Shown here piece after piece: positions 546-63,470 of a stretch of 64,000 nucleotides of DNA (its first letter is position 1; the number at the start of each line of letters is the position of its first letter). The DNA lies in sequence record OR924452; one strand, written 5' to 3'. The notes under the pieces are model-generated. The model saw only the letters and a list, made by a program, of their open reading frames with translations, made no database searches and was not told the origin of the DNA. This DNA is from Escherichia phage 241. The translations under genes were made by a program, and so were the position numbers.

Positions 546-690
546 AATACTTCAAAAATAATTTAAAAATTTATTGAAAAAGACTTTACTCTTCAATAAT
601 CATGCACTATTATAGTTCACATAGGGCGGTACACAACACCCCGCCGAATGAAAAGTGAAACGACCCAACTACATTATGAGGAATTACATC

Positions 691-3618: not shown

Positions 3619-5901
3619 ATGATTAACATCATAAAGCGGGACGGATCTTCTGTCCCCTTTGACATTGAAAAACTCCACACTGTTCTTGAACGTGCCTGTG
3701 AAGGATTAGAAGGAGTTTCGGTGTCTGAGGTGGAAGCAGCATCGAAGATTCAGTTCACAGACAATATGAAAACCGAACGCATTCAGGATATTATCATCCA
3801 AGCGGCGGCTACATTGATTTCTGTAGAAAAACCCAACTACCAATATGTTGCTGCCCGCCTGAAATCGTATGACCTGCGCAAAGTCGTCTATGGGCGATAC
3901 AAGCCACCTCACTTGCTTGATATATTCGCTAAAAACATCAAGCAGGGCGTTTATGATCGTGAATTCCTCGAACTCTATACGAAAGAAGAATTTGAAGAAC
4001 TGAACACGGTCATCAATCACAAACGCGACAAGAATTTTACTTGGGCGGCTATGGGCCAGCTCACGCAAAAATATCTTTTGCGCGATCGCTCAGCAGACAG
4101 CAAAGTATATTACGAAACGCCTCAAGTCATGTATATGGCGATCGCGATGGCTCTGTTCTCTGCATGGGGCAAAGAAACTCGCCTGACGATGGTGAAGAAA
4201 TTTTATGAATACGCCAGCACAGGTAAATTCAGTCTTCCAACGCCCATCATGTCCGGCGTTCGTACCCCAACCCGCCAATTCAGTTCTTGTGTTCTTATCA
4301 AAACTGGTGACACTTTGGACTCAATCAATGCTACAGCCAAAAGTATTGTTGATTATGTATCCAAACGCGCTGGGATCGGATTTGATGTCGGAGCAATTCG
4401 CGGCATCGGTAGCCCTATCCGAAAAGGCGAAATGGTGCACACAGGCCTGGTTCCTTTCATCAAATATCTGACTGGGGCATTAAAGTCTTGCTCTCAAGGC
4501 GGTATTCGTGGCGGATCAGCAACTTGCTATATCCCTATCTGGCATTATCAATTTGATGATGTTGTGGTCCTGAAGAATAACCGTGGTCTTGAAGAGAACC
4601 GTGAACGCCGTATCGACTACGGTATTCAGATCAACCGTGTCATGTTCGAACGTCTGGTGAACAAACAACCCCTGTATTTGTTCGATCCGAAAGACAACCG
4701 CGATATGTACGAAGCGTTTTTCGCAGATGTCGATAAGTTCCGTACCCTGTACGACAACATGGTCAAAGCTGCTGATGCTGGTTTGGTTCGTGCCAAGAAG
4801 ATGAATGCGGAAGAAGTATTCCAGATGTTGTTGGATCAGCGTTCAGATACAGGCCGCATCTACATCGCGTTTGTCGACCACATGAACCAGTACAGCCCAT
4901 TCAATCTAGACACAATCTATAGTTCTAATCTGTGTCTGGAGATTGCGCTTCCTACTCGTGAATTCCAACAGTACGACGATGAAGAAGGTCGGATCGCTCT
5001 GTGTACTTTGGCCTCTTTTAACCTGACGGCGTTTGAAGACCCGACAGAAATGGAAGACGTTGCATATGTCTTGGTTTCGGCTTTGGATATGCTGCTGGAA
5101 TACCAAGATTATCCAGCACGTCAAGCCCGTCTGGCTGTGGAAGAATATCGTCCTCTGGGTATCGGTGTCGTCAACGTTGCACATTTCTTCGCCAAGAACT
5201 TCACGGGGTATGGATCTCCTGTTGGGTTAGAACTCCTGGACAAGTGGATGGCGCACCTGCATTTCTATCTGGTAAAGGCTTCGAATCGTCTGGCCATGAA
5301 GTTTGGGGCATGTAAGAAGGAAACCATTCATCGTTCTGGTAAGATAACAGCCGACCTTCAACCGTTGCCGCTGGATATCCTCCCCAATGGTAAAAAGCCG
5401 GAAGGTATGGCATACGGCCTTGACTGGGACGGTTTGAAAGACTCTCTGCGTTACCATGGTATCCGCAATGCTACTCTCTTGGCGATAGCACCAACTGAAA
5501 GCTCCTCTCAGGTGCTGAACGCCACGAATGGTATAGAGCCACCCAAAGGCCTCATCAGTATCAAAGGCAGCAAGGATGGCGTTTACAAGCAGATCGTTCC
5601 GGACGTTGAAACCCTTGGTCCTCTATATGACCTGAAATGGAATCTGTCTTGTATCGACTATTTGAAAACAGCGGCGGTCGCCCAGCGTTGGGTAGACCAA
5701 TCCATCAGCGTTAATACACATTATGATCCAGAGAAATTCCCAGACGGGAAGATCCCGCGCTCTCTCATGATGCAGGATATTCTGTCTTTCTACATGTGGG
5801 GTGGTAAAACTCTGTATTACAACACCAACAAAGACTCTAAGGAAGATGAAGAGTTGAAACAAATTGAAGATCCGAATCACTGTGACACCTGTGTTGTCTG
5901 A
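3619..5901 (+). CDS. nrdA: ribonucleoside-diphosphate reductase large subunit (class Ia, N-terminal ATP-cone)
   Basis: 760 aa; N-terminal INIIKRDGSSVPFDIEKL ATP-cone; global resemblance to T4/E. coli NrdA including the YQYVAAR region. Confidence 0.9.
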   Translation: MINIIKRDGSSVPFDIEKLHTVLERACEGLEGVSVSEVEAASKIQFTDNMKTERIQDIIIQAAATLISVEKPNYQYVAARLKSYDLRKVVYGRYKPPHLLDIFAKNIKQGVYDREFLELYTKEEFEELNTVINHKRDKNFTWAAMGQLTQKYLLRDRSADSKVYYETPQVMYMAIAMALFSAWGKETRLTMVKKFYEYASTGKFSLPTPIMSGVRTPTRQFSSCVLIKTGDTLDSINATAKSIVDYVSKRAGIGFDVGAIRGIGSPIRKGEMVHTGLVPFIKYLTGALKSCSQGGIRGGSATCYIPIWHYQFDDVVVLKNNRGLEENRERRIDYGIQINRVMFERLVNKQPLYLFDPKDNRDMYEAFFADVDKFRTLYDNMVKAADAGLVRAKKMNAEEVFQMLLDQRSDTGRIYIAFVDHMNQYSPFNLDTIYSSNLCLEIALPTREFQQYDDEEGRIALCTLASFNLTAFEDPTEMEDVAYVLVSALDMLLEYQDYPARQARLAVEEYRPLGIGVVNVAHFFAKNFTGYGSPVGLELLDKWMAHLHFYLVKASNRLAMKFGACKKETIHRSGKITADLQPLPLDILPNGKKPEGMAYGLDWDGLKDSLRYHGIRNATLLAIAPTESSSQVLNATNGIEPPKGLISIKGSKDGVYKQIVPDVETLGPLYDLKWNLSCIDYLKTAAVAQRWVDQSISVNTHYDPEKFPDGKIPRSLMMQDILSFYMWGGKTLYYNTNKDSKEDEELKQIEDPNHCDTCVV

Positions 5902-12871: not shown

Positions 12872-12908
12872 TCCGGTCTAAATACCCATAACACAATGAA
12901 ACTTCGTT

Positions 12909-19622: not shown

Positions 19623-19694
19623 TTTAACTCAGAAGCATTCAATAGATGAAGGGGCTGCTATAATAGCAGCTCCTTTTGTTTATTGGAGCACACC

Positions 19695-25855: not shown

Positions 25856-25918
25856 CTTCAATAATGGTGGTCATAGGGTATAATCTCTATGATCTGAATA
25901 TTAACCCAGGAGCACATC

Positions 25919-28762: not shown

Positions 28763-28817
28763 TTCAATAACTGTTTCACCCATATAATACATGGGAATTT
28801 ACAGAAGGAACACAACT

Positions 28818-29159
28818 ATGACCACACTCGTAGAAACATTATTCCCAGGATGCACCCTTGGGCGCGGCGGTAGCGAAGCCAACGGGCTGGCAATTGACGC
28901 CGAACCACAGAACTGCGTTGTTATCGACAAATTCCATGACAATCACTATCCTCTGAGCCATCGCCGTGATCATTATCTGGTTTCTGTGGGTGAAACATTG
29001 GTCTCTCTTCGTATTTGTGAAGCAATGCCTGGTTATGGTTATGACGCATTTGCATATATCCATAGCGTTTCCAATGGGGAAATGGGGAAAGAAACCCTGA
29101 CTGAACAATTCAAAGGATGGAAAGAATCTTTTACGTCCGTCAAACCGCCGAAGAAATAA
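28818..29159 (+). CDS. hypothetical protein (113 aa)
   Basis: AGAAGGAAC RBS before internal ATG at 28818. Confidence 0.45.
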   Translation: MTTLVETLFPGCTLGRGGSEANGLAIDAEPQNCVVIDKFHDNHYPLSHRRDHYLVSVGETLVSLRICEAMPGYGYDAFAYIHSVSNGEMGKETLTEQFKGWKESFTSVKPPKK

Positions 29160-32074: not shown

Positions 32075-32096
32075 AAGGGGGTGTAACCCCCTTTCA
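32075..32096 (+). terminator. rho-independent terminator
   Basis: AAGGGGGTGTAACCCCCTTT. Confidence 0.6.
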
Positions 32097-32117
32097 ATAA
32101 ATCTATGGCAGTATAAT
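32094..32117 (+). promoter_or_regulatory. putative promoter (TCAATAAA box, 10 nt spacer, TATAAT)
   Basis: TCAATAAA-tctatggcag-TATAAT, 29 nt upstream of ATG 32146. Confidence 0.35.
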
Positions 32118-39904: not shown

Positions 39905-40308
39905 TATTCACCTCTCAGAAGACGAGCGAAGCGTTCAACAATGCGATTGCGCGGCTTCTCGGGAACGATGTCTTCTACCGTAATGGTCAGTGTGTAGTTT
40001 GTAGAAAAATCGCAATCGGACTTTGTGATGATTTTCCGTTCACCAGGCAGCGGATACATCGTTAAAGCCCTATCGACGGAATCTAGAGAAGAACCGACCA
40101 AGTCCACCACCCTTTGGTGCCCGAACGATAATGGACCCACGACATCCTTTTCAAAAATTTCAATCACGTCGGTGACTAACACACCCAATGCAAGTCTTAG
40201 TCCAAGGTTCTGATTTTTATCCCCTAGTGTGTACACAAACTGCCGACGCCACAACTCTTTCCGGTCTTCAGAACGGACGAGAGAATAATTCAAATGGTAT
40301 TGTTTCAT
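39904..40308 (-). CDS. hypothetical protein (134 aa)
   Basis: ORF. Confidence 0.45.
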   Translation of the reverse strand: MKQYHLNYSLVRSEDRKELWRRQFVYTLGDKNQNLGLRLALGVLVTDVIEIFEKDVVGPLSFGHQRVVDLVGSSLDSVDRALTMYPLPGERKIITKSDCDFSTNYTLTITVEDIVPEKPRNRIVERFARLLRGE

Positions 40309-40684: not shown

Positions 40685-41035
40685 TTATTCAGTACAAGCT
40701 CGACCAAGTTCAGTCAGGCGGTAGAATGTTACTTCTGATTTCGGCCAATGCTTATACTCTTCAGAGTCATCATGAACCATAGTGAACGCAGGTTCGATCA
40801 GACCTTTAGATAATAATGATTGCCCTGAACGTGTATCCCACGGATCACCTTTTACAGAACGAAACCCACCAGCAATCGGAGGGGCATGGAATGTCCATAC
40901 TGTCTTGCCCTTTTCATTCGTCCAAGACTTCGGATTGAAATACCAATGACAAAGGCGTCGATCATCATGGGTTTCAAAATTCAGCATTCCCAGAAGGACA
41001 CAGAGTTGATGTCCTGTGATTCTTGGCTTTTTCAT
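40685..41035 (-). CDS. hypothetical protein (116 aa)
   Basis: ORF. Confidence 0.45.
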   Translation of the reverse strand: MKKPRITGHQLCVLLGMLNFETHDDRRLCHWYFNPKSWTNEKGKTVWTFHAPPIAGGFRSVKGDPWDTRSGQSLLSKGLIEPAFTMVHDDSEEYKHWPKSEVTFYRLTELGRACTE

Positions 41036-41364
41036 AAGATCCCCAAGTCAGTAAGGTAACGATAAGACAGGACTACAGATAGAAATCCAATTAACATCCA
41101 AGACGACAGGATAGGCTTGCAATTTAGCGTAGTCTTTCCATTGGGTATGTTGGGACTTCCAGTAATAACAACCGAATCCGTTTTAGCTCTCAACGTCATG
41201 ACAGAACCCATGAGAATGATTGGGCGCACATAATGTCCGTCGCGATTGCGCTTTACAATACATGGTGAAGAAAATCGCAGGAACGGATCACCGCTTTTAT
41301 AACCGAACAACTCGACCTTTTCTATTTCTTCGGGAACCTTTTGTCCAGGAAAGAATATTCTCAT
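41032..41364 (-). CDS. hypothetical protein (110 aa)
   Basis: ORF. Confidence 0.4.
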
Positions 41365-41921
41365 AATATGATTCCTAAATTTGTGTATAACAATTCAGCT
41401 AGAGTAACAGGTCGTTTGAATTGTTCCCAGCTGCAGTTCAGATATTCACGTTCTTCGCGGATCTTTTCGTGAAGATGTCCATGGATATTATACGCCCAAC
41501 GATCTAATTGATACGGAACGTGTGTAGTCAGAATCCGACCGACAGAAGTATCCCGCTCATACATGGCACCAAAGGATGTAATCCAGCCCTCCAGATACAA
41601 CCGCATTAACATTTTGAAACTGTCGTGGTTGCCCTGTGCCACCCTGATGATAAAGTTCGGACGCCATTCATCGGGAACGGGGCGGCGCTTGAACTCATCA
41701 ATGTTCCGCTTGGCTCCTTCGCGCATCAGGCGTATGAACCCCTCAGCGCCGATAAAGCAGATGTCCCCCGCCAGTTCAAGGACATCCCGAGATTTCAGCC
41801 CTTGGAATATGCTGTCTATAACCGCAGCATCATGGGATTCTTGAGTATCGAATCCACGAGGTTTAAAGACTTTTTTATGCCCGAGGTGAGTGTCACCAAG
41901 GTACTTGACAATTCCTGCCAT
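41361..41921 (-). CDS. calcineurin-like metallophosphoesterase
   Basis: GDTHLGH ... GNHD ... HGHLHE motifs. Confidence 0.6.
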
Positions 41922-42388
41922 CAGATTCTTTCCTTCTCGGAGATACGGTCATGTGCGTTCTTTAACATTGCGTCCGACCAGTTAGACCAATCGAATACAT
42001 TAATAGAACTCACACCGTTATACAAATCCAATATAGTGGGAGAGAGCTGAATATTTAGAGCGCAAGGATCATCACTTTCAACGACCTTCAACCAAAATAA
42101 TTTTTTGTCTAGTAATTCGCGGGAGATACGTCTATACTTGGTAGCAGCTTCTTCACACCACCTTTCTAAGATCATCATCAATTCCCTTTCGATCCCAAAC
42201 CGAAACTCTGGTGTATTGGGTAAGCCGTGATAAGCAGACTTGAATCGATATTCCGTGACTTCATTTAATCGTGATATTAAGGGAACGACGAAACACGTTT
42301 GGAACTCATATTTCCAAGCTCTTTCGAGAACACTAATAATCTCATCACGTTCACATTGACTTAATTTCATTATGGCCTCCTCATCCAT
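41921..42388 (-). CDS. hypothetical protein (155 aa)
   Basis: ORF. Confidence 0.45.
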
Positions 42389-42711
42389 TCTAATATTGGG
42401 ATGCTTACAAACCCTTTATGCCAGCGGTGAGGTTTATGGCCTCTGTTGTGCTCCAACAAACAAGTATCTGGAGGAACACTGAAATGGATACCATCGATAT
42501 CGTAATAATTCCCGTCGATAAGAGTGTACACATGCCCTTCAATCTGGCTGTAATGAATCTCCGCTTGCGGATAAACGTGTTTGAGAACCAGGGCGACTTG
42601 ATAGCACTTCCCGTTCTTTCCCACATACTCAACATCCACCTGTTGTGGGAAAATGTCCTTGATCAGATTTATCAATATGGTGATATCATTCACCACGACA
42701 GATGGTTTCAT
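42370..42711 (-). CDS. hypothetical protein (113 aa)
   Basis: ORF. Confidence 0.45.
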   Translation of the reverse strand: MKPSVVVNDITILINLIKDIFPQQVDVEYVGKNGKCYQVALVLKHVYPQAEIHYSQIEGHVYTLIDGNYYDIDGIHFSVPPDTCLLEHNRGHKPHRWHKGFVSIPILEWMRRP

Positions 42712-42724
42712 CTTCTCATCTCAC

Positions 42725-43387
42725 CTATGATAACTCATAGCGATGGCGGGTACATGCAGGGCAATTACAGTCTTTTCTCAAAATTGGCATTTCACACCAC
42801 GTCATCAAACCATGTATTGGAGACATGTGGTGATAAAACCATGATTTTTTGAGACTAATCAAAGGATATAAAATTTCAATTGGCCTTTCCCCGTCTCTTG
42901 TCATCATATTGTATCCTTCGATGACCTTATTGAAAGCTGGGATCCAGTGGATCGCGTCGTCCCCGTTGACATATGCCAATATGTATGTGGGAGGCAAACT
43001 CCGGCCTTTAAATTGTGTGTTTAATAACCATATCGGGGCTTGTGCTAAACACGCACGAAACCCGCCGTCCGGCACGTGAATGCTACTAATCGGTTCTTGG
43101 TGATGAGTCCAACGATGCATAAGAAGCGGAGCATTCTTGTTGATCCAATTATAAATTTTATTTCGCGCCCAATTCTCACGTTTGGATTTGAAATTATTAT
43201 TTTCAAGATGGCAATACACAGTATGAACCGAATAACCTTTCGATAATAACCAAACCAACATGTATGTGCTATCCACGCCGCCTGACCAAAACAATGTCAC
43301 TTCTTGATTATTTTCCGGCAAAGGTGCATCCCCTTGAAGGACACGGTACACAAATTCACAATCAGATACAGAGACAACGATTTCCAT
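42725..43387 (-). CDS. PP-loop ATP pyrophosphatase, QueC-like
   Basis: SGGVDST PP-loop near the N-terminus; C-terminal Cys cluster WCEMPILRKDCNCPACTRHR resembling the QueC zinc site; about 220 aa. Confidence 0.5.
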   Translation of the reverse strand: MEIVVSVSDCEFVYRVLQGDAPLPENNQEVTLFWSGGVDSTYMLVWLLSKGYSVHTVYCHLENNNFKSKRENWARNKIYNWINKNAPLLMHRWTHHQEPISSIHVPDGGFRACLAQAPIWLLNTQFKGRSLPPTYILAYVNGDDAIHWIPAFNKVIEGYNMMTRDGERPIEILYPLISLKKSWFYHHMSPIHGLMTWCEMPILRKDCNCPACTRHRYELS

Positions 43388-43710
43388 TAAATTATTCCCC
43401 TCAAAGAGTCATTGATTCTACGCAATTCGTTTTCCACCTTTATCTTCATATTTTTGTCGTCGTTCACGAAAATCATTTTATCTAAATCTTCGCCATTAAT
43501 CTTTGTATAAAAATAAATGTCATGCTCAAAGAAAATCGTTTTTCCAACAGAACGCATGGCAAAGAATGTCGCAATAGTTCTCGATAATGGCTTGAACTTA
43601 ATAGCATTAAAACGCAAAGCCTGATATAGGGGTTTTAATGTTCCCAGTCTGATACAGTGCTGAATGATTTCTTGTTCTTTCATCCCATTGTCCGAGTGAC
43701 GGGGTTTCAT
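43387..43710 (-). CDS. hypothetical protein (107 aa)
   Basis: ORF. Confidence 0.4.
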   Translation of the reverse strand: MKPRHSDNGMKEQEIIQHCIRLGTLKPLYQALRFNAIKFKPLSRTIATFFAMRSVGKTIFFEHDIYFYTKINGEDLDKMIFVNDDKNMKIKVENELRRINDSLRGII

Positions 43711-43781
43711 CGGAAACCCCCTATGTTTGTTGGTTAAACAATGATACTTTAGTCAAGATATAGAAAAGCCCCTTTCGGGGC

Positions 43782-44072
43782 TTATTCTTCATCAGATTTG
43801 AAAAGGTTCCATCGGCCTATTCCATACCATTCTCCAATATTGTTGGAGTAGCGGGTTGTCCTAACTCCACCGATTTCGTACCCCCATTTGAAGAAACTCC
43901 ATCTTTCCTTTAGGGTGGGTGGTTTATTTCCGGTTGCCAAGGAGCAAGCTGTAAGCCAACGTGCGATACTAATGGCTTGAAAAATTGGATGAATAAACGA
44001 ATAATACACAACACTCAGAGTTATAATGACGAAGACGCATGTTGTAATCACCCCGACAATTTCAAAGAACAT
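43782..44072 (-). CDS. small membrane protein (96 aa)
   Basis: GGGGG RBS; hydrophobic helices. Confidence 0.4.
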   Translation of the reverse strand: MFFEIVGVITTCVFVIITLSVVYYSFIHPIFQAISIARWLTACSLATGNKPPTLKERWSFFKWGYEIGGVRTTRYSNNIGEWYGIGRWNLFKSDEE

Positions 44073-44146
44073 TTATAACCCCCAATATTGAACACACACT
44101 ATGATGAACGTTGTGATCGTGAATACCCAGGAGAAGATAGAAAGTT

Positions 44147-44779
44147 TCATTCTTCTACCTTTAGCCCCATCAGGTCTTCCATGGTCTTCTGAATACGAAG
44201 CCAATCAAGAGCAGCGTCATAACGAGGATCATGATAGACCATGCCTTCCAGTTCCCAAGCCTTGATACCAGCATAACGATCCTGTTGCCCAACGCCTTTC
44301 AGCCAGCTCACGATGTCGAAGGTGTGATGGTAATCCCAAGGCTCGTTGGAGTCCTGCTTACATGTCACCTCAATGATATGTTGGGCCTTGCGGAGATCAA
44401 ACAAGTTTCGGTCACACCAGTCAACCGAGCGCGGGTCTATCCCAAGACGATGACAACCCTTGCGGATTTCATCGGCCAGCTGGAAGATAGAGGTGTCCTG
44501 ATCGGTCGGGTACAGGCTGACAGCGCGAGCAGCATCACACGGGTTTCGCTTACCCGTACCCAACCACCATTCAACAGTCCCCTGATCCTTGACGCGGCCA
44601 AGTTTAGTCTGCTCTTTGACATCCAACTTTATGAACGTCGTTCGCTCTTCAACGAGTTGCTGAAGAGTGTAGCGTTTGGTCAGGTCGGCGATAGTATGCG
44701 CCCAGGATAACATAATAGCATCGTCCCAGCGCCCCAGAGTCTCGCTATCGGCGACAGCCAAGAAATTAGATTTATACAT
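44147..44779 (-). CDS. dexA: DEDD-type 3'-5' exonuclease, DexA-like
   Basis: AVADSETLG, TVEWWLG and YHDPRYDA parallel T4 DexA FDFETMG, TIEWWKN and AHDSIHDCA. Confidence 0.65.
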   Translation of the reverse strand: MYKSNFLAVADSETLGRWDDAIMLSWAHTIADLTKRYTLQQLVEERTTFIKLDVKEQTKLGRVKDQGTVEWWLGTGKRNPCDAARAVSLYPTDQDTSIFQLADEIRKGCHRLGIDPRSVDWCDRNLFDLRKAQHIIEVTCKQDSNEPWDYHHTFDIVSWLKGVGQQDRYAGIKAWELEGMVYHDPRYDAALDWLRIQKTMEDLMGLKVEE

Positions 44780-45116
44780 CGGTTTCCCCCGCTTTCTCTA
44801 AAAGAAGTTTCAAAGGATATGTCCCACAAGCGGTGGCATATTCAACTCTGAAATATGAATTATCGTTCATGGCGAAATTGCGATGAGGAAAATATTCACC
44901 ATCATCAAAACCACCCATCCCTCCACCGACGCGATATTGTTTCAATTCTACTTCGCCACCGTAACGCAGTTGGGCGTAGAGACCGATAGGAGCGCGAACA
45001 TAATGCTCCAGCCACACCCAATTACCGTCATGTAGACGAGTGGGCAAAAATGCAAACCGTACCTTGGGATGAAGAACGGCTTTAGCCAACATTTCTTCCG
45101 TCACTTCAGATTTCAT
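44772..45116 (-). CDS. hypothetical protein (114 aa)
   Basis: ORF. Confidence 0.4.
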   Translation of the reverse strand: MKSEVTEEMLAKAVLHPKVRFAFLPTRLHDGNWVWLEHYVRAPIGLYAQLRYGGEVELKQYRVGGGMGGFDDGEYFPHRNFAMNDNSYFRVEYATACGTYPLKLLLEKAGETDV

Positions 45117-45718
45117 CCGATGCTTTCCTCTTCGATGACGTCTTCTTCATTAGGAACAACAGAGATCCCAAAGTCGATCATTTGAGAGAGTTCTTGTAAA
45201 TCCTTTTCGAATCCATCCCCTTCCCGAATATAGAATACTGGGACCACGCGGCGGCGAGTATCTTCAAAGATGGTTTCGGCGATTTTGTTAATCTGGCCTA
45301 CCACATGTGTGAGATTCAAGCCACCAATACCACAACCGATGGCGGGCAAACCGACATAGACAGTTTCATCAGCTTTGGCTTCAACGATATCATGAATTTG
45401 TTCAAACATGATCTGGACTGAGCTAATGATAGATGGCATGCGAGCATTGGGACCTGGGTAAAATTGAGTATACAAATTGAATCCCCAGACACCAGTGTCA
45501 TGATCAAACGCATAGGACATGTTCCCCAAGCGCTGTTCCGGACCACGTTCATCTAATTGGTCGGCGCGGTAAATCTCTGGGAAATTCAATCGAACGTGAT
45601 TGGCGATACCCGCGCCCATTACAGACCAACAATTTGCGCCGTGAGCAAAGGCATTGATAAGATTGAAACTCGTGGCGGCTTTTAATAAATCGCCATTTGT
45701 GATAATATAAGTGGTCAT
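45113..45718 (-). CDS. macro-domain protein (ADP-ribose binding/processing)
   Basis: ITNGDLL...INAFAHGANCWSVMGAGIANH typical of macro domains; start set at ATG 45718 (ATGA coupling). Confidence 0.6.
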   Translation of the reverse strand: MTTYIITNGDLLKAATSFNLINAFAHGANCWSVMGAGIANHVRLNFPEIYRADQLDERGPEQRLGNMSYAFDHDTGVWGFNLYTQFYPGPNARMPSIISSVQIMFEQIHDIVEAKADETVYVGLPAIGCGIGGLNLTHVVGQINKIAETIFEDTRRRVVPVFYIREGDGFEKDLQELSQMIDFGISVVPNEEDVIEEESIG

Positions 45719-45951
45719 GCGTAACGTCTCCATTGTATAATTTCGTTGTCGACACAACTGACCTGAATGATACACATATTCTGGCGATGGTCGGTGAGTG
45801 TAATAATAAAACTGTCTGGTTGTGACATGACACGATTAACAGATATCCCGCGCGACATCAAACGAAAGCAAATTTCTTGATACAAACGTTGCATATATCC
45901 TGAAACAGAAGCCGATTCATATGCGCGTTCAAATTCGTATAATTCGTTCAT
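45715..45951 (-). CDS. hypothetical protein (78 aa)
   Basis: ORF. Confidence 0.4.
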   Translation of the reverse strand: MNELYEFERAYESASVSGYMQRLYQEICFRLMSRGISVNRVMSQPDSFIITLTDHRQNMCIIQVSCVDNEIIQWRRYA

Positions 45952-46172
45952 TTATTCAGACCATTAATAGCATTTTCAGAGATGTATTCGACGAATTGAT
46001 TGTCAGCCGCCATTTTTAAAAGTTCAAACAATTCAGTTCCAACTGTACTCCCAAACATTCCTTCCAATACTCCTTGGACATCTTCATCTATTTCTTCGAT
46101 GATGAGTCCATAAGATTTCAGGCGTCGCGAAATAGCACGGAACTGGGCAATATCTCCAATTTCATTTGCCAT
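45948..46172 (-). CDS. hypothetical protein (74 aa)
   Basis: ORF downstream of a promoter-in-hairpin element. Confidence 0.4.
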   Translation of the reverse strand: MANEIGDIAQFRAISRRLKSYGLIIEEIDEDVQGVLEGMFGSTVGTELFELLKMAADNQFVEYISENAINGLNK

Positions 46173-46202
46173 GGTATTATCTCAATATGGGGTTAGGCGG
46201 CA

Positions 46203-46227
46203 ATTATACCGCCATTTTCTTCAATAG
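46203..46227 (-). promoter_or_regulatory. putative promoter (CTATTGAAG box, 10 nt spacer, TATAAT) with the -10 in a hairpin loop
   Basis: Minus strand CTATTGAAG-aaaatggcgg-TATAAT; hairpin GGCGG-tataattg-CCGCC; about 30 nt upstream of ATG 46172. Confidence 0.45.
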
Positions 46228-46634
46228 AGGTCTTCGGAAAAGAGTTCACGGAAAGGAGTGTTCTTCAAACGAACTTGATTGGTTTGTCCAGCTTCACGGG
46301 CTACAATAGCCGCCTCTTCCCTAGACATCCATTGCCCATAGTTATCGATAAACCCTTGTTCACGCGTGCGGGTGTTTTCGATAACACCTGCTTCCTTCAA
46401 TCGTTTCAGTTGCGCATTCATTAATTTGTCGTGGTGACGGGCGCTTACAACGATGACATCACCATATCTGTTGGCAGCGGCCACTACGCGGCGGTCAAAT
46501 TTAGTTGGGTCTGGTATATCCCGAGCATATAGGGCGATATGGGTGTCGTCAACATCCCCTTTGACTTCAGAATATAACTGGCCACCATTAGGAGATCCAG
46601 TGGGTAAAGAACGAAAATAACCGAGTAATTTCAT
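46221..46634 (-). CDS. hypothetical protein (137 aa)
   Basis: ORF. Confidence 0.45.
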   Translation of the reverse strand: MKLLGYFRSLPTGSPNGGQLYSEVKGDVDDTHIALYARDIPDPTKFDRRVVAAANRYGDVIVVSARHHDKLMNAQLKRLKEAGVIENTRTREQGFIDNYGQWMSREEAAIVAREAGQTNQVRLKNTPFRELFSEDLY

Positions 46635-46689
46635 AATCTAGTCTATCCATATTTCAGGTTCGGGGATATCAACCATCTCCATTGACATA

Positions 46690-47001
46690 TTACGCCTCCA
46701 CTTCTTCATCAGGAAAATAAGGGCGTAAATCCCCAATTAATTTAGGGAAGAGGGCAAACCCGAACAGATTAAAAGAACGCATGGTCCCAACCATACCAAC
46801 ATCATCCAATTCGGTAACGTCAGAAAGGGCACACAACGGTATCCACACGTCTTCTTGTCCTTCGTAATTTACGAAGGCAACTTCCTCTTTGATGAATCGA
46901 GGACAAAGAATATCAAACAGCCAATAGGCGTATGCCAGTAATGAGAGACTGCGGAAATATACAAACATGGTGAACCCCTCACAGGTTTGGAGGGAATTCA
47001 C
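46690..47001 (-). CDS. hypothetical protein (103 aa)
   Basis: ORF. Confidence 0.4.
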   Translation of the reverse strand: MNSLQTCEGFTMFVYFRSLSLLAYAYWLFDILCPRFIKEEVAFVNYEGQEDVWIPLCALSDVTELDDVGMVGTMRSFNLFGFALFPKLIGDLRPYFPDEEVEA

Positions 47002-47010
47002 CCTCCAGAT

Positions 47011-48342
47011 TTATAGGCTTAATGCCTTTTCAAGATCATCTAAATCATCATTGTAGAGATCAATGTCTTGTTTGTTATTTAATTCTTCTCTTTGTTCTTC
47101 CAGATTCTTTATCTGATTCAACAATCGTTCACGTGCGTCTAACGTGATTGATGATAAAGACATCTTGAATAATTCATCAAGATCACCATCAAAATCTGGA
47201 TAATCCGTTTGAAACAACGCTTTCAGTTCTGTAATGCTGCGACGCATATCCGTAACCACGGCCCAACTGATGAATAATGCACGGTTGTTCAGGCGATGAA
47301 TTTTATCAGTCATCTCCTTTAACAGGTATTGACGACGGTCTTCATAACGGATCAAACGATAGTTGAAGAAGGAAAGCAGCATCTCCTTCCACCCAGAATA
47401 ACGTCGGATGACACCATCTTCATCCCATGCCGTCCAGACGGGTTTGTTCGCAGAGTACAGTTTGAACATCTGCTCGATTTGTGCATCATCCAGCTTAGAC
47501 AATTCACCACGTTTGAACACGACAGTAATGTCCCAGCCGTCTTCGGTCGTGTCATTGGCGTATTCAGTGAGCAAACCCGCCTTATACAACGGCAACAGAA
47601 CTTTGGTCTCATACGATTTAGCGAACCAACCAATTGGGACCTCGGTGATGTGAAGGGTTGTAGCATTGATGCGTTTGAAGATGCCGCGACTGTATGCTCT
47701 TCCTTCCTCAGTATAGCCTGTCTCTCCTTTATATCCATTCCAGTACGGTTTTAAGTCCGTAGGGTCTTCGCCACGGAGAAGTGCTCTCAGAGCGCCGAGG
47801 ACTGATTTAACGCAATGGCATGGGGTGTCCGTTGAGTACCCAGATCCGATACCATTAATTCCGTTCACCAAGAACATGGGAATAACAGGCAAAAAGAACT
47901 TTGGTTCCAATTGTTCTTCACCCAAGTAGTTGTAATCCAAAATCCCCTCATCTTCCTTACGGAATATTTTACGGATAACATCGGATACAGAAACAGAGAT
48001 GTAACGAGCAGACGATGCGTCACGTCCCATGATAGAACCAAATTGACCATCACGGTCAAAGTATGGAATATTGTTCGTACCAGGAAACGCCTGAGCCATG
48101 TTCACAATCGTATTGCCCATGTTCTCACCACCGGACTTGTAGTTGGTACGAGCGGCGGCGAACATACCCAGGCGATCAACAATCTCTTCCTTGCCATATT
48201 CCAATGCAGTGAAAAGAATTTTGCGCTGACTTGGTTTCAAACTGTCAATCAACTGAGGTATTTGACGGATGCTGTTGAACACAGAAAATGCCTTGTGATC
48301 ATTATTGACATAATCCGTGACATTGATACTTTGAGCGACCAT
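47011..48342 (-). CDS. 52: DNA topoisomerase II medium subunit (gp52, GyrA-like)
   Basis: PSQRKILF and NNIPYFDRDGQFGS...ARYIS parallel T4 gp52 PVQRFVIA and NNFPLLDGQGNFGS...SRYIF; start set at 48342 so it does not overlap gp39. Confidence 0.8.
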   Translation of the reverse strand: MVAQSINVTDYVNNDHKAFSVFNSIRQIPQLIDSLKPSQRKILFTALEYGKEEIVDRLGMFAAARTNYKSGGENMGNTIVNMAQAFPGTNNIPYFDRDGQFGSIMGRDASSARYISVSVSDVIRKIFRKEDEGILDYNYLGEEQLEPKFFLPVIPMFLVNGINGIGSGYSTDTPCHCVKSVLGALRALLRGEDPTDLKPYWNGYKGETGYTEEGRAYSRGIFKRINATTLHITEVPIGWFAKSYETKVLLPLYKAGLLTEYANDTTEDGWDITVVFKRGELSKLDDAQIEQMFKLYSANKPVWTAWDEDGVIRRYSGWKEMLLSFFNYRLIRYEDRRQYLLKEMTDKIHRLNNRALFISWAVVTDMRRSITELKALFQTDYPDFDGDLDELFKMSLSSITLDARERLLNQIKNLEEQREELNNKQDIDLYNDDLDDLEKALSL

Positions 48343-48343
48343 C

Positions 48344-50254
48344 TTATTCTCCCTCTGTTTCAAACAAACAAACATCACTAAACCAGGTTTTGCGGTAATC
48401 GGCGGTCTCATCACCGAAGCCGTTCTTCAGTGATTCTTTGTAGTTGTCATCCAACGTGACCGTCGTAGTATACGCATCCAGATTGTTTAGAATACGTTTG
48501 AAGTCTTCAGTGCTGTTACCACCAAGACCTTTCAGATATTTCTTCTTCGTAATCTTCTTGGCGTCAGGGGTTTTTAAAAATTCTTCATATTCCGTATTGC
48601 TCATAAACTCATACATCGTTTTACCACACCAAATACGCATGTATGGTGTGCGCAGGAGTTTCAGCCTACCCTGACGGACGTACTCCGGCCAATATGTGCA
48701 ATACAGAGTAATCAACAAACCACGGATGTGAATGCCATCATCGTCCGCATCGGTGGCTACAACAGTCTGTGGGTAGCGGGTGATATCAATCGGCTGACCT
48801 GGGACTGCGCCTCCATGAATCGTGCAAAGATTCTTGAACTCCTCATTATTCATTACCTTTGATCGCGGATTGTTTAAACAATTGATGAATTTACCACGCA
48901 AAGGGAATAATCCGATCTTTTTAGTATCACGGGCGTTCAGGATAGGATTGGACGCGCTGTCACCTTCAGTCAATAACAGAGAGCACCCACTGCGATCACC
49001 ACGGGCGGTCGCCGGATAATACTTCTCTATCTCACGATAATCCCGTTTGCTAATATCCTTCTTGGCCTTTTCAAATTCAGCATCATCTTGGTCGTTACGC
49101 AAGGCGGCCAATTCTTTGCTCAGGCCAGCTGTGACAAACTCCAGAGCCTTCCGGATTAGTTTATCGCTGGGCTTATAGGTCGTACCAAACTGGCTAACAG
49201 GAGTCGTCATACGCTCCTTGGTTTGGCTATCAAAACGAGGGTTGTTGATATCAGCCGAGATGAAAAGCATCATATGGTTTTTAATCATAGAAGGCTTCAG
49301 ATCAGTCTTAAACTTTTTCACCAATTGTGGGCGAATCGCATTCACGATCTGGTCAGCAACGTAATCCACATGAGGACCACCGATATGGGTGGCAATGCTG
49401 TTCACATATGATGCATGAATAAACGTCCCTTGTGAAGGAGCAACAGCAACAGACCACTCCTCTGTTTCATCAACAGAAGAACCTTGGCAAAAGTAATCCA
49501 CAAAATGGCCAAATCGGTCGATACGGATTTGTTTCCCGTTCAGAATGACTTTCAGGCGCGGGTTACAAGCAGCCACTTCAAATGCTCGGCGATAGATCAT
49601 CAACAAGTTATTTTGATCAAGACCTTTGACACCCAGACGCGCATAATCAGGTATCCATGCGATAGACGTCCCAGGGGCATTCAAATTACTGATCACCGGA
49701 TTAGAACGTTTGCTCAAATTGTCTTCAAATGTTTGAGTGTAAGACTTCTTCCCGTCATTTGTCGTGACACGGAACCATTTTGAAAATACGTTGACCAGTG
49801 AAGCCCCTTCACCGTTCTGCCCACCTGATTTTTTGTTATTGTATTCTTCATCGTCGTCGTTGAAGTTGCTACCCGCATAGAGGGAGCCAAATAACATCTC
49901 AGGGAGCCATTCCTTTGTCTCCCCGTGTTTAACAACCGGAATACCCCCATTGTCAGCCACGATGATCTGACCATTCATAGGAGAAACGGTAATGGTGATT
50001 TCTGTGAGGCTTTTACCTTCTGGCGTTTTGCTATGATCTACAGAGTTGGTGATAATTTCATCAAACTGTTTAATCAATGCAGGAGAATATTCAAAATTAT
50101 CCTTGAATATAACTTGATCTTTTATTGGATCATATATCCAAGTCGTTCCAACGGCTGAACGGATACTGCCCAGATGACGCTCTGGGCGAAGAAGGATATG
50201 CTCTATGTGAGTGAGCTTTTTGTATTTTCGTTCAATATCAATCATATTAGACAT
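48344..50254 (-). CDS. 39: DNA topoisomerase II large subunit (gp39, GyrB-like ATPase plus Toprim; appears to include the gp60-equivalent region)
   Basis: 636 aa; GHKL ATPase and Toprim pattern; longer than T4 gp39. Confidence 0.85.
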   Translation of the reverse strand: MSNMIDIERKYKKLTHIEHILLRPERHLGSIRSAVGTTWIYDPIKDQVIFKDNFEYSPALIKQFDEIITNSVDHSKTPEGKSLTEITITVSPMNGQIIVADNGGIPVVKHGETKEWLPEMLFGSLYAGSNFNDDDEEYNNKKSGGQNGEGASLVNVFSKWFRVTTNDGKKSYTQTFEDNLSKRSNPVISNLNAPGTSIAWIPDYARLGVKGLDQNNLLMIYRRAFEVAACNPRLKVILNGKQIRIDRFGHFVDYFCQGSSVDETEEWSVAVAPSQGTFIHASYVNSIATHIGGPHVDYVADQIVNAIRPQLVKKFKTDLKPSMIKNHMMLFISADINNPRFDSQTKERMTTPVSQFGTTYKPSDKLIRKALEFVTAGLSKELAALRNDQDDAEFEKAKKDISKRDYREIEKYYPATARGDRSGCSLLLTEGDSASNPILNARDTKKIGLFPLRGKFINCLNNPRSKVMNNEEFKNLCTIHGGAVPGQPIDITRYPQTVVATDADDDGIHIRGLLITLYCTYWPEYVRQGRLKLLRTPYMRIWCGKTMYEFMSNTEYEEFLKTPDAKKITKKKYLKGLGGNSTEDFKRILNNLDAYTTTVTLDDNYKESLKNGFGDETADYRKTWFSDVCLFETEGE

Positions 50255-59609: not shown

Positions 59610-60048
59610 CTGTTTCTCCTTTTGCTGCATATGCCAGTGCTTTTACGATCATCACGGCCAGTCCGATTGGATCGTACATGTTATCGAATTCTTGTTCTAC
59701 AATCTGACGTATTTCATCAGAAGATTGTACTTCGGAGCAGTTCTTGCTCTGTCTACGTTGTTCTTGCTCAACGAGGTCTTTGAACAGAAGGTCTTTGAAA
59801 GAATACTCATCGAAGTTTTCCAGATACTGCTGGATACTTGGTTGTTTCGCATCCATCGTTCTACGCAGATTGCTGATAGTTGAACTCGCCTGTTCGCGGT
59901 GTTTGTTCATAACGGAAAAGTTCACGGGTTGTCCCCAAGCGTTCGTCACTGTGTTGGAACACACTTGTCCGAAGAGATCTTGGAAGGCGTCATCCAGATG
60001 AATCAGCGCGGCGGCCAGTTCATCATAAGTTGGTTTTTGAGCAGTCAT
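59602..60048 (-). CDS. hypothetical protein (148 aa)
   Basis: ORF. Confidence 0.45.
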   Translation of the reverse strand: MTAQKPTYDELAAALIHLDDAFQDLFGQVCSNTVTNAWGQPVNFSVMNKHREQASSTISNLRRTMDAKQPSIQQYLENFDEYSFKDLLFKDLVEQEQRRQSKNCSEVQSSDEIRQIVEQEFDNMYDPIGLAVMIVKALAYAAKGETDV

Positions 60049-60428
60049 TTTCGTTTATTCCTATTTTTAGATTTCTTGGCTTGACGTTTATGCTGGGCGG
60101 CTCCATACAAGCGCGGAGGCTTTTGATAACGCTGTGAGGCAATTATATCCCTGTAGTCGGCTTCGGCTTCACAGCAAGAAACATCCGTTCTTCGTAATTG
60201 TGCGACCGCTTGTGACACCAGCATTTTACGTTCGCTTTCTACCAGGTCATCACAAATTATCATGCGCTCGCCTGGTTCACAACGACGTTTGGGAATGTCG
60301 TCAACACTGATGCATTCCACCTCAACGCCTTTCAATTTTTCTTGAAGGATGATGGCCATAGTACGAGCGCCCACCCCTCCTCCAATAATTGCAATCTTTC
60401 TTGGCTTGTCAGACATAATACATTCCAT
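60045..60428 (-). CDS. hypothetical protein with Gly-rich dinucleotide-binding-like N-terminus
   Basis: KIAIIGGGVGA motif; basic C-terminal tail. Confidence 0.45.
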   Translation of the reverse strand: MECIMSDKPRKIAIIGGGVGARTMAIILQEKLKGVEVECISVDDIPKRRCEPGERMIICDDLVESERKMLVSQAVAQLRRTDVSCCEAEADYRDIIASQRYQKPPRLYGAAQHKRQAKKSKNRNKRK

Positions 60429-60434
60429 AAAAAA

Positions 60435-60468
60435 GAGGATAGAGCAATAATACCCTATCCCCCTTTAT
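60435..60468 (-). terminator. terminator hairpin with AATAAT loop; one of two near-identical intergenic elements
   Basis: GAGGATAG-agcaataatacc-CTATCC with flanking T-tract on the minus strand; followed by the shared TTTATTGAAGAACG. Confidence 0.5.
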
Positions 60469-60478
60469 TGAAGAACGA

Positions 60479-60904
60479 TTAGTCTTTGGATTCTACTTTA
60501 TCACCGCGCAGATCCTGGACGGGTTTGCCATCCGGCGACATGATGTATATGGTGTTAATTGTCTCAAACCAAGACAATTCATCAACTCCTTCAGTGTATG
60601 GAGTTACCGGAACTGAAGTTTTGATATGATCACCATCGTTATTTGGGGCACCATCAGACTTCAGCACTGGCTCCAGGAAGGCGAAACGGCCATTTGGATA
60701 AATCACCCCGCCTTTGAACATGCGAATCTTCTTACGAGGATTATTCGCCTCGCCAAGGCACACCACCAGATGATGGATCATCTCAGGACGGGTAAGCAAC
60801 GTGTCGTCACGGATGATCCCCTGTTTGATAGCAGAGATCACCACTTCATCCAACAAAGCCTGTTGCTGTTCCAGAGTCAAAGATTCAGTAAGTTTCACGC
60901 TCAT
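60479..60904 (-). CDS. hypothetical protein (141 aa)
   Basis: ORF. Confidence 0.45.
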   Translation of the reverse strand: MSVKLTESLTLEQQQALLDEVVISAIKQGIIRDDTLLTRPEMIHHLVVCLGEANNPRKKIRMFKGGVIYPNGRFAFLEPVLKSDGAPNNDGDHIKTSVPVTPYTEGVDELSWFETINTIYIMSPDGKPVQDLRGDKVESKD

Positions 60905-62602: not shown

Positions 62603-62985
62603 AACACACCATCCACGAGTTGTTCCTTCGTCATACCAAGAAGTTGATTTTTATGACCTGATTCAGCTCCATTTTTCAACAACAGATCCCAACGTTCTTC
62701 ATGATACCGTGGAGTCATTGCATCGTCAAAAGAAACATGGTGGCGATGCATAATTGTTGCAACGGTATGAAGAACGATTGCTGTCGCTCTTTTTAAAGCA
62801 CGTGTATCAGTGATATGGTCTTCATATTCGATACCCATCAAATCGAGTTCTTTCCGAATATATGCAATAGACAAATCACCTTCAGAATGCAATTTAACAA
62901 TAGTCGCTTTCTTAGGATGTAACACGCCGTCTGTTTCTTTCATGAACAGATCGTACAAATATTGTTTGTATTCGGGGCGCATCAT
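62599..62985 (-). CDS. hypothetical protein (128 aa)
   Basis: ORF with ATGA coupling. Confidence 0.45.
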   Translation of the reverse strand: MMRPEYKQYLYDLFMKETDGVLHPKKATIVKLHSEGDLSIAYIRKELDLMGIEYEDHITDTRALKRATAIVLHTVATIMHRHHVSFDDAMTPRYHEERWDLLLKNGAESGHKNQLLGMTKEQLVDGVL

Positions 62986-63221
62986 CTCGTAATCCCTCCG
63001 GCACAGATAATATTCAGTTCACCGCGACGGAAACCGCCTTGCCCATCGTCCAACTTAGTCAGAAGTGTATGTGCATCTCGAACTTTCTGAGCGAACTCTT
63101 CCGACACCACCAGATGACCCATCAGAGGAGTCTTTTCTTGTTTTGGGGTGGATTCAAAATAGTCACCAAACGTCGCTTCCATATCCAGCACAGACATATC
63201 TTCAATTCGTTGCATTGCCAT
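62982..63221 (-). CDS. hypothetical protein (79 aa)
   Basis: AAGGAAA RBS. Confidence 0.4.
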   Translation of the reverse strand: MAMQRIEDMSVLDMEATFGDYFESTPKQEKTPLMGHLVVSEEFAQKVRDAHTLLTKLDDGQGGFRRGELNIICAGGITR

Positions 63222-63244
63222 GATGTATTTCCTTGTAAAAGAAA

Positions 63245-63274
63245 GGGGAACGGGCTAATAATAACCCATTCCCC
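63245..63274 (-). terminator. terminator hairpin with TAATAATAA loop; second copy of the repeated intergenic element
   Basis: GGGGAACGGG-ctaataataa-CCCATTCCCC, T-rich flank on the minus strand. Confidence 0.5.
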
Positions 63275-63302
63275 TTTATTGAAGAACGCAATCGCAGTCA
63301 GA

Positions 63303-63470
63303 TTACTTTTTCTTCAGCTCTTCCAGCTTGGCTTCAATTTGGTCCAGGATTTCTTTACCTTTCTGGACGATGGCTTCACCGTCTTGCGCGTGTTTACGAA
63401 AAACCAGAGCGCCAGCAATGAAACCAACAACCACGCCTGGGAGCGCATACACCAACAGATCTTGTAACAT
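63303..63470 (-). CDS. small membrane-anchored protein (55 aa), below the ORF-track cutoff
   Basis: GAGGA RBS; translation MLQDLLVYALPGVVVGFIAGALVFRKHAQDGEAIVQKGKEILDQIEAKLEELKKK. Confidence 0.3.
   Translation of the reverse strand: MLQDLLVYALPGVVVGFIAGALVFRKHAQDGEAIVQKGKEILDQIEAKLEELKKK

Follow-up and report, generated by a model that had tools for sequence, protein, structure and literature searches.

A repeated intergenic element of Kuttervirus phages as a probable intrinsic terminator and candidate overlapping promoter

A 64,000-nucleotide (nt) stretch of Escherichia phage 241 (OR924452; hereafter the window) carries two near-identical copies of a short intergenic element about 2.8 kb apart, which we call site 1 (60417–60478) and site 2 (63222–63302), both on the minus strand. 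We propose, at a probability of roughly 60%, that each copy is a composite in which a terminator overlaps a phage promoter whose -10 hexamer would sit at the hairpin apex. What we observed is the repeat itself, a hairpin at each copy, conservation of both across genera, enrichment and fixed spacing of a sequence motif, and a recombination junction between the copies in laboratory mutants. The window shares 99% identity with Salmonella phage SJ2, is also close to Vi01, to relatives of CBA120 and to further Kuttervirus phages, and by sequence is itself Kuttervirus (Ackermannviridae, Vi01-like).

Two copies of one element

The genes surrounding the two sites all run on the minus strand, which means that the element is to be read as the reverse complement. 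Its order in that reading is CGTTCTTCAATAAAGGGG, hairpin, T-run, and each copy runs from a stop codon through a conserved box, TTCTTCAATAAA, a 16-base-pair (bp) hairpin and a T-run to a ribosome-binding site and an ATG (site 1, TAA-TCGTTCTTCAATAAAGGGGGATAGGGTATTATTGCTCTATCCTCTTTTTTATGGAATGTATTATG; site 2, TAA-N14-CGTTCTTCAATAAAGGGGAATGGGTTATTATTAGCCCGTTCCCCTTTCTTTTACAAGGAAATACATCATG). A preliminary description of this DNA had put a shared 18-mer after the hairpin. On the coding strand the 18-mer stands upstream of the hairpin, and it is the terminator T-run that follows. The coordinates given there were right to within 1–2 nt, and the hairpin with an apex of AATAAT type, as written on the plus strand, is present at both copies.

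The 18-mer, CCCCTTTATTGAAGAACG, had two exact occurrences in the window (60460–60477 and 63271–63288) and forms the core of a 32-nt repeat (60446–60477 and 63257–63288) that is 29/32 (91%) identical and was the best long repeat pair of the window in a repeat search. The preliminary description had named a chance likeness of two A/T-rich terminators as one result that would speak against the element. Nothing beyond the general AT-richness of terminator flanks favors that explanation. Allowing up to three mismatches, 0.06 matches to the 18-mer were expected and two observed, a number reached in 0/100 shuffles, and the element stays unchanged between genera that are 69–76% identical in the DNA around it; we regard chance as refuted, with a negligible residual probability. 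Outside the repeat, likeness tails off past the hairpin, and the 40 nt upstream of the two sites, anchored on the 18-mer, agree at only 10/40 positions, the random level. The flanking genes are unrelated, as had been claimed: the four proteins (141, 123, 55 and 79 amino acids (aa)) share no similarity (best blastp E-value 0.49), and a Pfam search of them returned a single match, DUF7231, in the gene downstream of site 1.

Site 1 takes up the entire intergenic region from the stop codon of the 141-aa gene (open reading frame (ORF) 60479–60904) to the conserved ATG at 60416 of the DUF7231 gene. Its box (60464–60475) has the core TTCAATAA at 60465–60472, the proposed -30 element of a phage promoter, and exactly 12 nt 3' of it the -10-like hexamer TATTAT (60447–60452) occupies the hairpin apex. 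The hairpin (60431–60466) has a 16-bp stem including an A/U extension, a GC core of GGGGGATAGGG / CTCTATCCTC and a UUAU loop, and the run TTTTTT (60429–60434) completes an intrinsic terminator. Site 2 separates the 55-aa gene (63303–63470) from the 79-aa gene (62982–63221). Here the box is at 63275–63286 (core 63276–63283), TATTAT at 63258–63263, again 12 nt 3' of the box, and the hairpin at 63242–63277, with a 16-bp stem, the GC core GGGGAATGGG / CCCGTTCCCC and a UUAU loop. The T-run TTTCTTTT (63237–63244), the ribosome-binding site AAGGA (63230–63234) and the ATG at 63221 follow.

The start of the DUF7231 gene differs among annotations. The first ATG of ORF 60045–60428 (60426–60428) is right behind the terminator T-run and is unconserved in relatives, and the conserved start is the ATG at 60416 (60414–60416; ATGTCTGACAAG). 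GenBank holds the gene in a long form (384 bp) in some records and a short form (372 bp) in others.

Terminator hairpins

Both sites have a stable GC-rich hairpin on the transcribed (minus) strand with a U-run directly 3' of the stem, the features of an intrinsic terminator. Site 1 RNA folded with a free energy (dG) of -21 kcal/mol (z-score -5.9; 0/200 shuffles folded as well) and site 2 RNA with -26.8 kcal/mol (z-score -5.3; no shuffle folded as well). The stems hold G.U pairs that become A.C mismatches on the opposite strand; since such pairs are workable on the coding strand only, the structure belongs to coding-strand RNA. Most other terminators of the genome have tetraloops (TTCG, GAAA). 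The GenBank record OR122688.1 annotates terminators at both sites, and MH688040.1 has one at site 1. A search of Rfam 15 gave no family at gathering score and sub-threshold terminator-like matches only (26.9 bits against 40; 24.1 against 55.8). On this evidence from sequence, each copy is very probably a strong intrinsic terminator, or at least a 3'-end hairpin, on the minus strand.

The same parts could instead work in RNA, forming an Hfq-type or processing module in which an A/U-rich single strand (UUCUUCAAUAAA), the terminator hairpin and the U-tail yield a stabilized mRNA 3' end or a small RNA derived from the 3' untranslated region. In Hfq-binding modules a hairpin and U-tail come after an A/U-rich stretch, a layout that the element resembles, and the G.U pairs do place the action of the hairpin in coding-strand RNA. 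The lack of an Rfam match at gathering score is a point against this explanation, as is the occurrence of the box antisense to genes and in inverted pairs, and the hairpin-free members of the family described below (box-N12-TATAAT) cannot work in this way. We consider it very improbable.

A scan with the sigma-70 consensus called an antisense promoter-like site on the plus strand at 63233–63262 (TTGTAA-18-AATAAT, 9/12), which overlaps the site-2 hairpin. No plus-strand gene comes after it.

Conservation across genera

We compared the orthologous intergenic regions of Mooltan and Guerrero (Kuttervirus), ChubbyThor (Agtrevirus), RC-2014 (Limestonevirus), and P01 and IME250 (Taipeivirus), in which regional DNA is only 69–76% identical to the window. 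Sites that are orthologous between genomes do not count as independent observations. Conservation in related phages, a check that the preliminary description had proposed, was found throughout: both elements were at the same positions in all six relatives, representing four genera. TTCTTCAATAAA was invariant in the seven sequences compared, as were the site-1 hexamer and the site-1 apex GTATTATTG in the relatives, and T-runs were retained in the four genera, at site 1 in every relative. The distance from TTCAATAA to the apex TAnnnT hexamer was always 12 nt, at both sites and in all genera compared. At site 2 the hexamer itself varied (TATTAT; TAATAT in Agtrevirus and Limestonevirus; TATATT in Taipeivirus; TATGAT in Erwinia phage phiEa2809), all at N12, and in Taipeivirus the N12 spacing was kept via a G deletion plus a C insertion.

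The hairpin changed in a way that preserved pairing. Phage phiEa2809 (Nezavisimistyvirus, 50% GC) has a site-2 orthologue directly behind its aGPT-pyrophosphorylase gene, TTCAATAA-N12-TATGAT, with the hexamer in the loop of a 10-bp hairpin, GGGGTTACAG / CTGTAATCCC. Relative to the GGGGAATGGG / CCCGTTCCCC core of site 2, five compensatory pair changes separate the two. A MAFFT alignment of site 2 from five lineages shifted the 3' arm of Taipeivirus by one column, and stem pairs were therefore counted directly. Together with two compensatory pairs at another member of the family (window 25857 and its orthologue, below), these changes indicate that the hairpin structure is under selection.

The preliminary description had taken the pair for a duplicated regulatory cassette rather than a gene duplication. 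A regulatory character and the absence of gene duplication both agree with our results. Recent duplication does not, since at least four genera have an orthologue of each copy in its own place. From these alignments, the two copies are ancient paralogous signals, separately maintained and kept alike by shared function.

The box and its spacing to a -10-like hexamer

No third copy of the 18-mer was found in the complete SJ2 genome, where the next best matches have four mismatches. The search for further copies did uncover a wider family: sites of the form TTCAATAA-N11-13-TATAAT, with or without a hairpin, number about 8–10 per genome, both copies included. TTCAATAA occurred 22 times in the window (5.0 ± 2.5 expected) and 44 times in SJ2, ranking first of 271 8-mers of the same composition (mean 7.3). 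Non-coding DNA, 7.8% of the SJ2 genome, held 20 of these 44 copies. Klebsiella phage P01 had 32 copies, 18 of them intergenic (second rank, behind one 8-mer with 33), and in phiEa2809 the box took top rank with 24 copies in 100 kb. Gene coordinates of SJ2, P01 and the window came from a simple greedy ORF caller.

Defining a -10-like hexamer as TAnnnT with at least 5/6 matches to TATAAT, we found a sharp peak in the distance from the box to the next such hexamer at 12 nt in three genomes. Offsets of 11–13 nt accounted for 10/44 boxes in SJ2, 9/32 in P01 and 7/24 in phiEa2809, against a background of 0.04–0.29 per offset (Poisson P = 3e-8, 7e-12 and 7e-11, respectively). Pooled, 26/100 boxes had a hexamer at 11–13 nt, 15 of them at exactly 12, and sites without a hairpin were among them. 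In the window, TTCAATAA-N12-TAWWAT matched three times with 0.01 expected. The -10-like hexamers of the family are located 28–37 nt ahead of the start codons of early or DNA-metabolism-type genes.

Scanning IMG/VR with TTCTTCAATAAA-N11-TAWWAT gave at least 120 matches. Those listed were almost all chance matches in AT-rich coding DNA of unrelated viruses, and among them the hairpin form occurred only in contigs of ~154–160 kb, the size of Ackermannviridae. A literature search for the TTCAATAA string returned nothing relevant. The abstract of the 2012 Viunalikevirus genus paper by Adriaenssens and colleagues reportedly mentions conserved regulatory sequences, and the motif may already be described there. 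In positions 1–50000 of phiEa2809 the commonest 8-mer is a palindrome, TGATATCA (24 copies in 50 kb), followed by TTGATATC and GATATCAA, which are unrelated to the cassette.

A proposed overlap of terminator and promoter

In the arrangement that we propose, RNA from the upstream gene would fold into the 16-bp hairpin with its U-run and terminate, and the same DNA would double as a promoter belonging to a class found throughout the family, TTCAATAA-N12-TAtaaT. In it, positions of about -32 to -25 would be taken by the box and the spacer by the 5' stem arm, whose sequence would be free to vary. The hairpin apex would provide the -10 hexamer, and the discriminator and transcript start would come from the 3' arm and T-run. 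Transcripts begun at this apex promoter would express the next gene from a ~25–30-nt leader and, being without the 5' arm, would escape termination. The hexamers 16–18 nt upstream of TATTAT are TTCTTC or TCTTCA, with 2–3/6 matches to TTGACA, and there is no TG extension. Given the missing -35 hexamer and TG extension and a box at the spacing of a MotA box, such a promoter would probably need a phage-encoded (or host) factor that recognizes TTCAATAA. For the promoter part we put the chances at somewhat better than even; its activity, the position of the start site and a box-binding factor are inferred. A canonical sigma-70 promoter with TTCAAT or TTCTTC as its -35 was ruled out (spacing 14 nt, 2–3/6 matches).

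Several observations weigh against the composite. The sigma-70 consensus scan made no minus-strand call at site 1 or site 2, and AT-rich hairpin apices fit TAnnnT fairly easily. The stems of both sites are conserved in sequence, beyond structure, across four genera, which a free promoter spacer would not require. The phiEa2809 site-2 hairpin is without a T-run, so the hairpin is not always a canonical terminator. Boxes antisense to local genes exist (SJ2 59662), as do boxes 5' of a hairpin without a properly spaced -10 (SJ2 20848 and 137289), and the box therefore probably has roles beyond that of a -30 element. In selz_497L, a laboratory mutant described below for which all junctions were mapped against the wild type, only one of about ten large deletions uses a box repeat. 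For the promoter in particular, we found neither 5'-end or 3'-end mapping for any Ackermannviridae phage nor transcriptomics or a promoter consensus for Ackermannviridae or Kuttervirus in the literature searched. Among eight annotated regulator-like SJ2 proteins, Pfam gave no match to MotA or AsiA, and Vi01-like phages have been reported to have neither (Kutter et al. 2011, PMC3184105).

Other family members and box arrangements

Members of the family fall into three layouts. In the first the -10 is in the hairpin apex (sites 1 and 2; window 19638 and 25857; SJ2 8197, 86679, 4817 and 147825), in the second the motif stands behind a separate terminator (window 32093; the rIIA upstream region), and in the third there is no hairpin (window 28763; SJ2 100844). 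The member at 19638–19690 (plus strand) reads TTCAATAG-N13-TATAAT, with the hexamer inside a GC hairpin loop (dG -30.6, z-score -5.9), then TTTTGTTTATT, GGAG and ATG. It is part of a long near-perfect palindrome (19632–19690, plus strand) in which TTCAATAG pairs with a downstream TTTATTGGA and all 50 nt fold; the minus strand too reads a box-like sequence-N14-TATTAT, and this element may be bidirectional. At 25857–25900 (plus strand), TTCAATAA-N14-TATAAT has its hexamer in the loop of a 10-bp hairpin without a T-run, and two compensatory pair changes distinguish it from its P01 orthologue. The member at 32093–32117 (plus strand), TTCAATAA-N11-TATAAT, follows just behind a separate terminator hairpin. 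This sequential order is like that of the promoter-early stem-loop (PeSL) cassettes of T4-like phages (Arbiol et al. 2010, PMC2839356; Comeau et al. 2014, PMC4122927).

An essentially hairpin-free member is found at 28763–28788 (plus strand), where a stop codon is followed by TTCAATAA-N12-TATAAT ~29 nt before a likely ATG at 28818; its fold is not significant (z-score -1.4). The pair SJ2 100844 / P01 33150 lies between divergently transcribed genes, a place that has to contain a promoter. Box, N12 and TATAAT are kept between the two phages with only 4/12 spacer positions identical, a conservation pattern that reads as a classical promoter footprint.

Boxes also occur in pairs. Inverted pairs, TTATTGAA-N13-TTCAATAA, surround the -35 of a TTTACT-N17-TATTAT promoter (window 571–613, both strands; SJ2 27087/27108 and 90595/90616; P01 111190/111211), and direct pairs 22 or 32 bp apart are found around TTTACT-type promoters (SJ2 137289/137311 and 20848/20880). 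The helical phasing of these pairs suggests an operator for a dimeric DNA-binding protein. TTTACT-N16/17-TATAAT makes up a third promoter-like class elsewhere in the genome, which looks like ordinary sigma-70 or T4-early-type promoters.

These arrangements bear on the simplest alternative, that the elements are intrinsic (possibly bidirectional) terminators only, with TATTAT an AT-rich loop and TTCTTCAATAAA the site of a DNA- or RNA-binding protein unrelated to initiation, such as a nucleoid protein or a repressor at an operator half-site. In favor of this, the hairpins and T-runs are strong, others annotate the sites as terminators, the stems are conserved in sequence, and some boxes ahead of hairpins have no suitably spaced -10. 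The main argument for an operator comes from the box pairs, which look like sites for dimeric regulators, and from the antisense boxes. Left unexplained are the sharp N12 peak between box and -10 in three genera, the hairpin-free members upstream of genes, one of them in a divergent intergenic region, and the preservation of N12 at site 2 via compensating indels. We judge this alternative unlikely, though it is the strongest of those considered.

Extending the composite reading to the family gives a broader and more tentative proposal, which we place somewhat below even odds. TTCAATAA would be the -30 element of an Ackermannviridae early/middle promoter class, read by a phage (or host) factor in a geometry resembling the sigma appropriation of T4 MotA/AsiA; a subset with the -10 at a terminator apex would insulate and restart gene cassettes in one 50-nt sequence; and paired boxes would be operators that shut sigma-70-like early promoters.

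One antisense box is conserved between genera (SJ2 59638–59670; P01 71104–71125), with TTATTGAAG on the coding strand ahead of a terminator hairpin; it may be an antisense promoter or reflect another role of the box. A different motif, CTAAATAcCcc, recurs 20–45 nt upstream of structural (late) genes, at window 12878–12885 (plus strand) and at many SJ2 sites, for example before the genes starting at 40153, 92807 (minus strand), 105011, 108695, 110892, 121882, 126151, 131744, 132963 and 138896. It looks like the late-promoter consensus of the family, unlike the TATAAATA of T4; the late sequence of Vi01-like phages had not yet been identified in 2011 (Kutter et al. 2011, PMC3184105).

Recombination between the copies

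The site 1/site 2 pair demonstrably recombines. OL964747.1 (selz_8t2) and MZ375358.1 (selz_497L) are laboratory mutants of phage selz, which is identical to SenALZ1, and both have lost exactly six genes (78–83), the block from site 2 to site 1. The deletion junction in both is GATTGCGTTCTTCAATAAAGGGG joined to GATAGGGTATTATTGCTC, that is, the site-2 upstream flank with the T-variant fused to the site-1 hairpin, which puts the crossover inside the shared CTTCAATAAAGGGG. With 14–18 identical bases in direct orientation, the copies are a recombination substrate that removes the gene block between them. Genes 78–83, which were among ten large-fragment losses outside the design (PMC9825161), are dispensable. 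The other large deletions of selz_497L were either designed or used 5–25-nt matches, the longer ones imperfect, inside genes, and the cassettes are thus no general deletion hot spot.

Natural variation at the sites points the same way. A 63-aa ORF is inserted directly downstream of the site-2 cassette in Guerrero (segment 4092–4283) and Mooltan (4104–4295), relative to window position 63222, with the insertion junction at the ribosome-binding site (CAAGGA). In Taipeivirus the 55-aa and 79-aa ORFs that flank site 2 are both absent and the element is kept.

Together with the mutant crossover, these rearrangements, and the precedent of PeSLs (PMC2839356, PMC4122927), would fit a recombination or mobility module of the kind proposed for PeSLs, a linker selected for shuffling gene blocks with regulation secondary. 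Against this, both copies have held fixed orthologous positions since the genera diverged, a single one of the roughly ten large selz_497L deletions used such a repeat, the hairpin form among the IMG/VR matches listed was confined to Ackermannviridae-sized contigs, and there are no terminal inverted repeats or target-site duplications. Selection for shuffling is in our view improbable. A miniature inverted-repeat transposable element or other transposon was ruled out on the lack of inverted terminal repeats and target duplications and on the fixed, orthologous positions.

In selz_497L, the tail-spike region (genes 50–53; wild-type SenALZ1 40770–49282) is replaced by ~1.9 kb that matches the wild type in pieces at ~80% identity, which suggests a rearranged or chimeric locus.

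Implications

Early and middle promoters of Vi01-like phages were described as not identifiable by informatics (Kutter et al. 2011, PMC3184105). A family-wide motif at fixed spacing to a -10 offers a concrete, directly testable promoter model for these phages, and TTCAATAA oligonucleotides are a handle for fishing out a factor that redirects host RNA polymerase. If the promoter reading is true, one 50-nt sequence both insulates and restarts a gene cassette. Vi01-like phages serve in biocontrol of Salmonella and E. coli O157 and as reporter phages, and genome reduction is carried out on them as well. For such uses the cassettes show where modules can safely be divided and which signals are likely to drive the expression of inserted genes, and the repeat pair accounts for one recurrent unplanned deletion (genes 78–83) in engineered selz phages.

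Comparison with known systems

The promoters of the coliphage N4 virion RNA polymerase are hairpins with 5–7-bp stems and 3-nt loops, read by a phage single-subunit polymerase on extruded DNA. The element shares with them a promoter signal, here a predicted one, tied to a DNA hairpin. In the complementary strand the G.T wobbles of the element turn into A.C mismatches. This speaks against cruciform extrusion as in N4 and makes a cruciform or N4-like hairpin promoter unlikely; we know of no N4-type hairpin-reading polymerase in Ackermannviridae. With intrinsic terminators, including bidirectional ones, the element has in common a GC-rich stem and U-run and an upstream A-tract that pairs with the U-tract. 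An ordinary terminator, however, could do without the 12-nt invariant 5' flank and the conserved 7–10-nt AT apex.

T4 middle promoters and the PmSL cassettes of Vibrio phage nt-1 have a MotA box, TGCTT, at -30, ~12 nt from a TATTAT-type -10. The element resembles them in carrying an upstream box in place of a -35, 12 ± 1 nt from a sigma-70-type -10, and in standing ahead of early and DNA-metabolism genes, and PmSL adds a stem-loop. It differs in that the box is TTCAATAA, without TGCTT, whereas the MotA box is (a/t)(a/t)(a/t)TGCTTtA, and for Vi01-like phages there is no report of a MotA or AsiA homologue (PMC3184105).

The PeSL and PmSL cassettes of T4-like phages are the closest described analogue. 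Like the element, a PeSL is a short intergenic GGGG...CCCC stem-loop terminator with a promoter (here a predicted one) that reaches the ribosome-binding site and ATG of the next gene, is repeated along the genome among small early, non-essential genes and near indels, and allows recombination between two copies to delete the intervening block (here in OL964747.1 and MZ375358.1). The PeSL-like sequential order of stem-loop and promoter is also found elsewhere in these genomes (window 32075–32117; SJ2 20855). By its sequence, the cassette lacks two defining PeSL features, a sigma-70-type -35/N17/-10 and a stem-loop that precedes the promoter. The PeSL stem-loop is just upstream of that promoter, whereas here the stem-loop overlies the -10, and in place of a -35 hexamer the cassette has the box TTCAATAA 12 nt from the -10. 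For the PeSLs of Straboviridae, measurements cover promoter and terminator activity as well as mini-circles; the Ackermannviridae cassette would be a counterpart in which terminator and promoter overlap.

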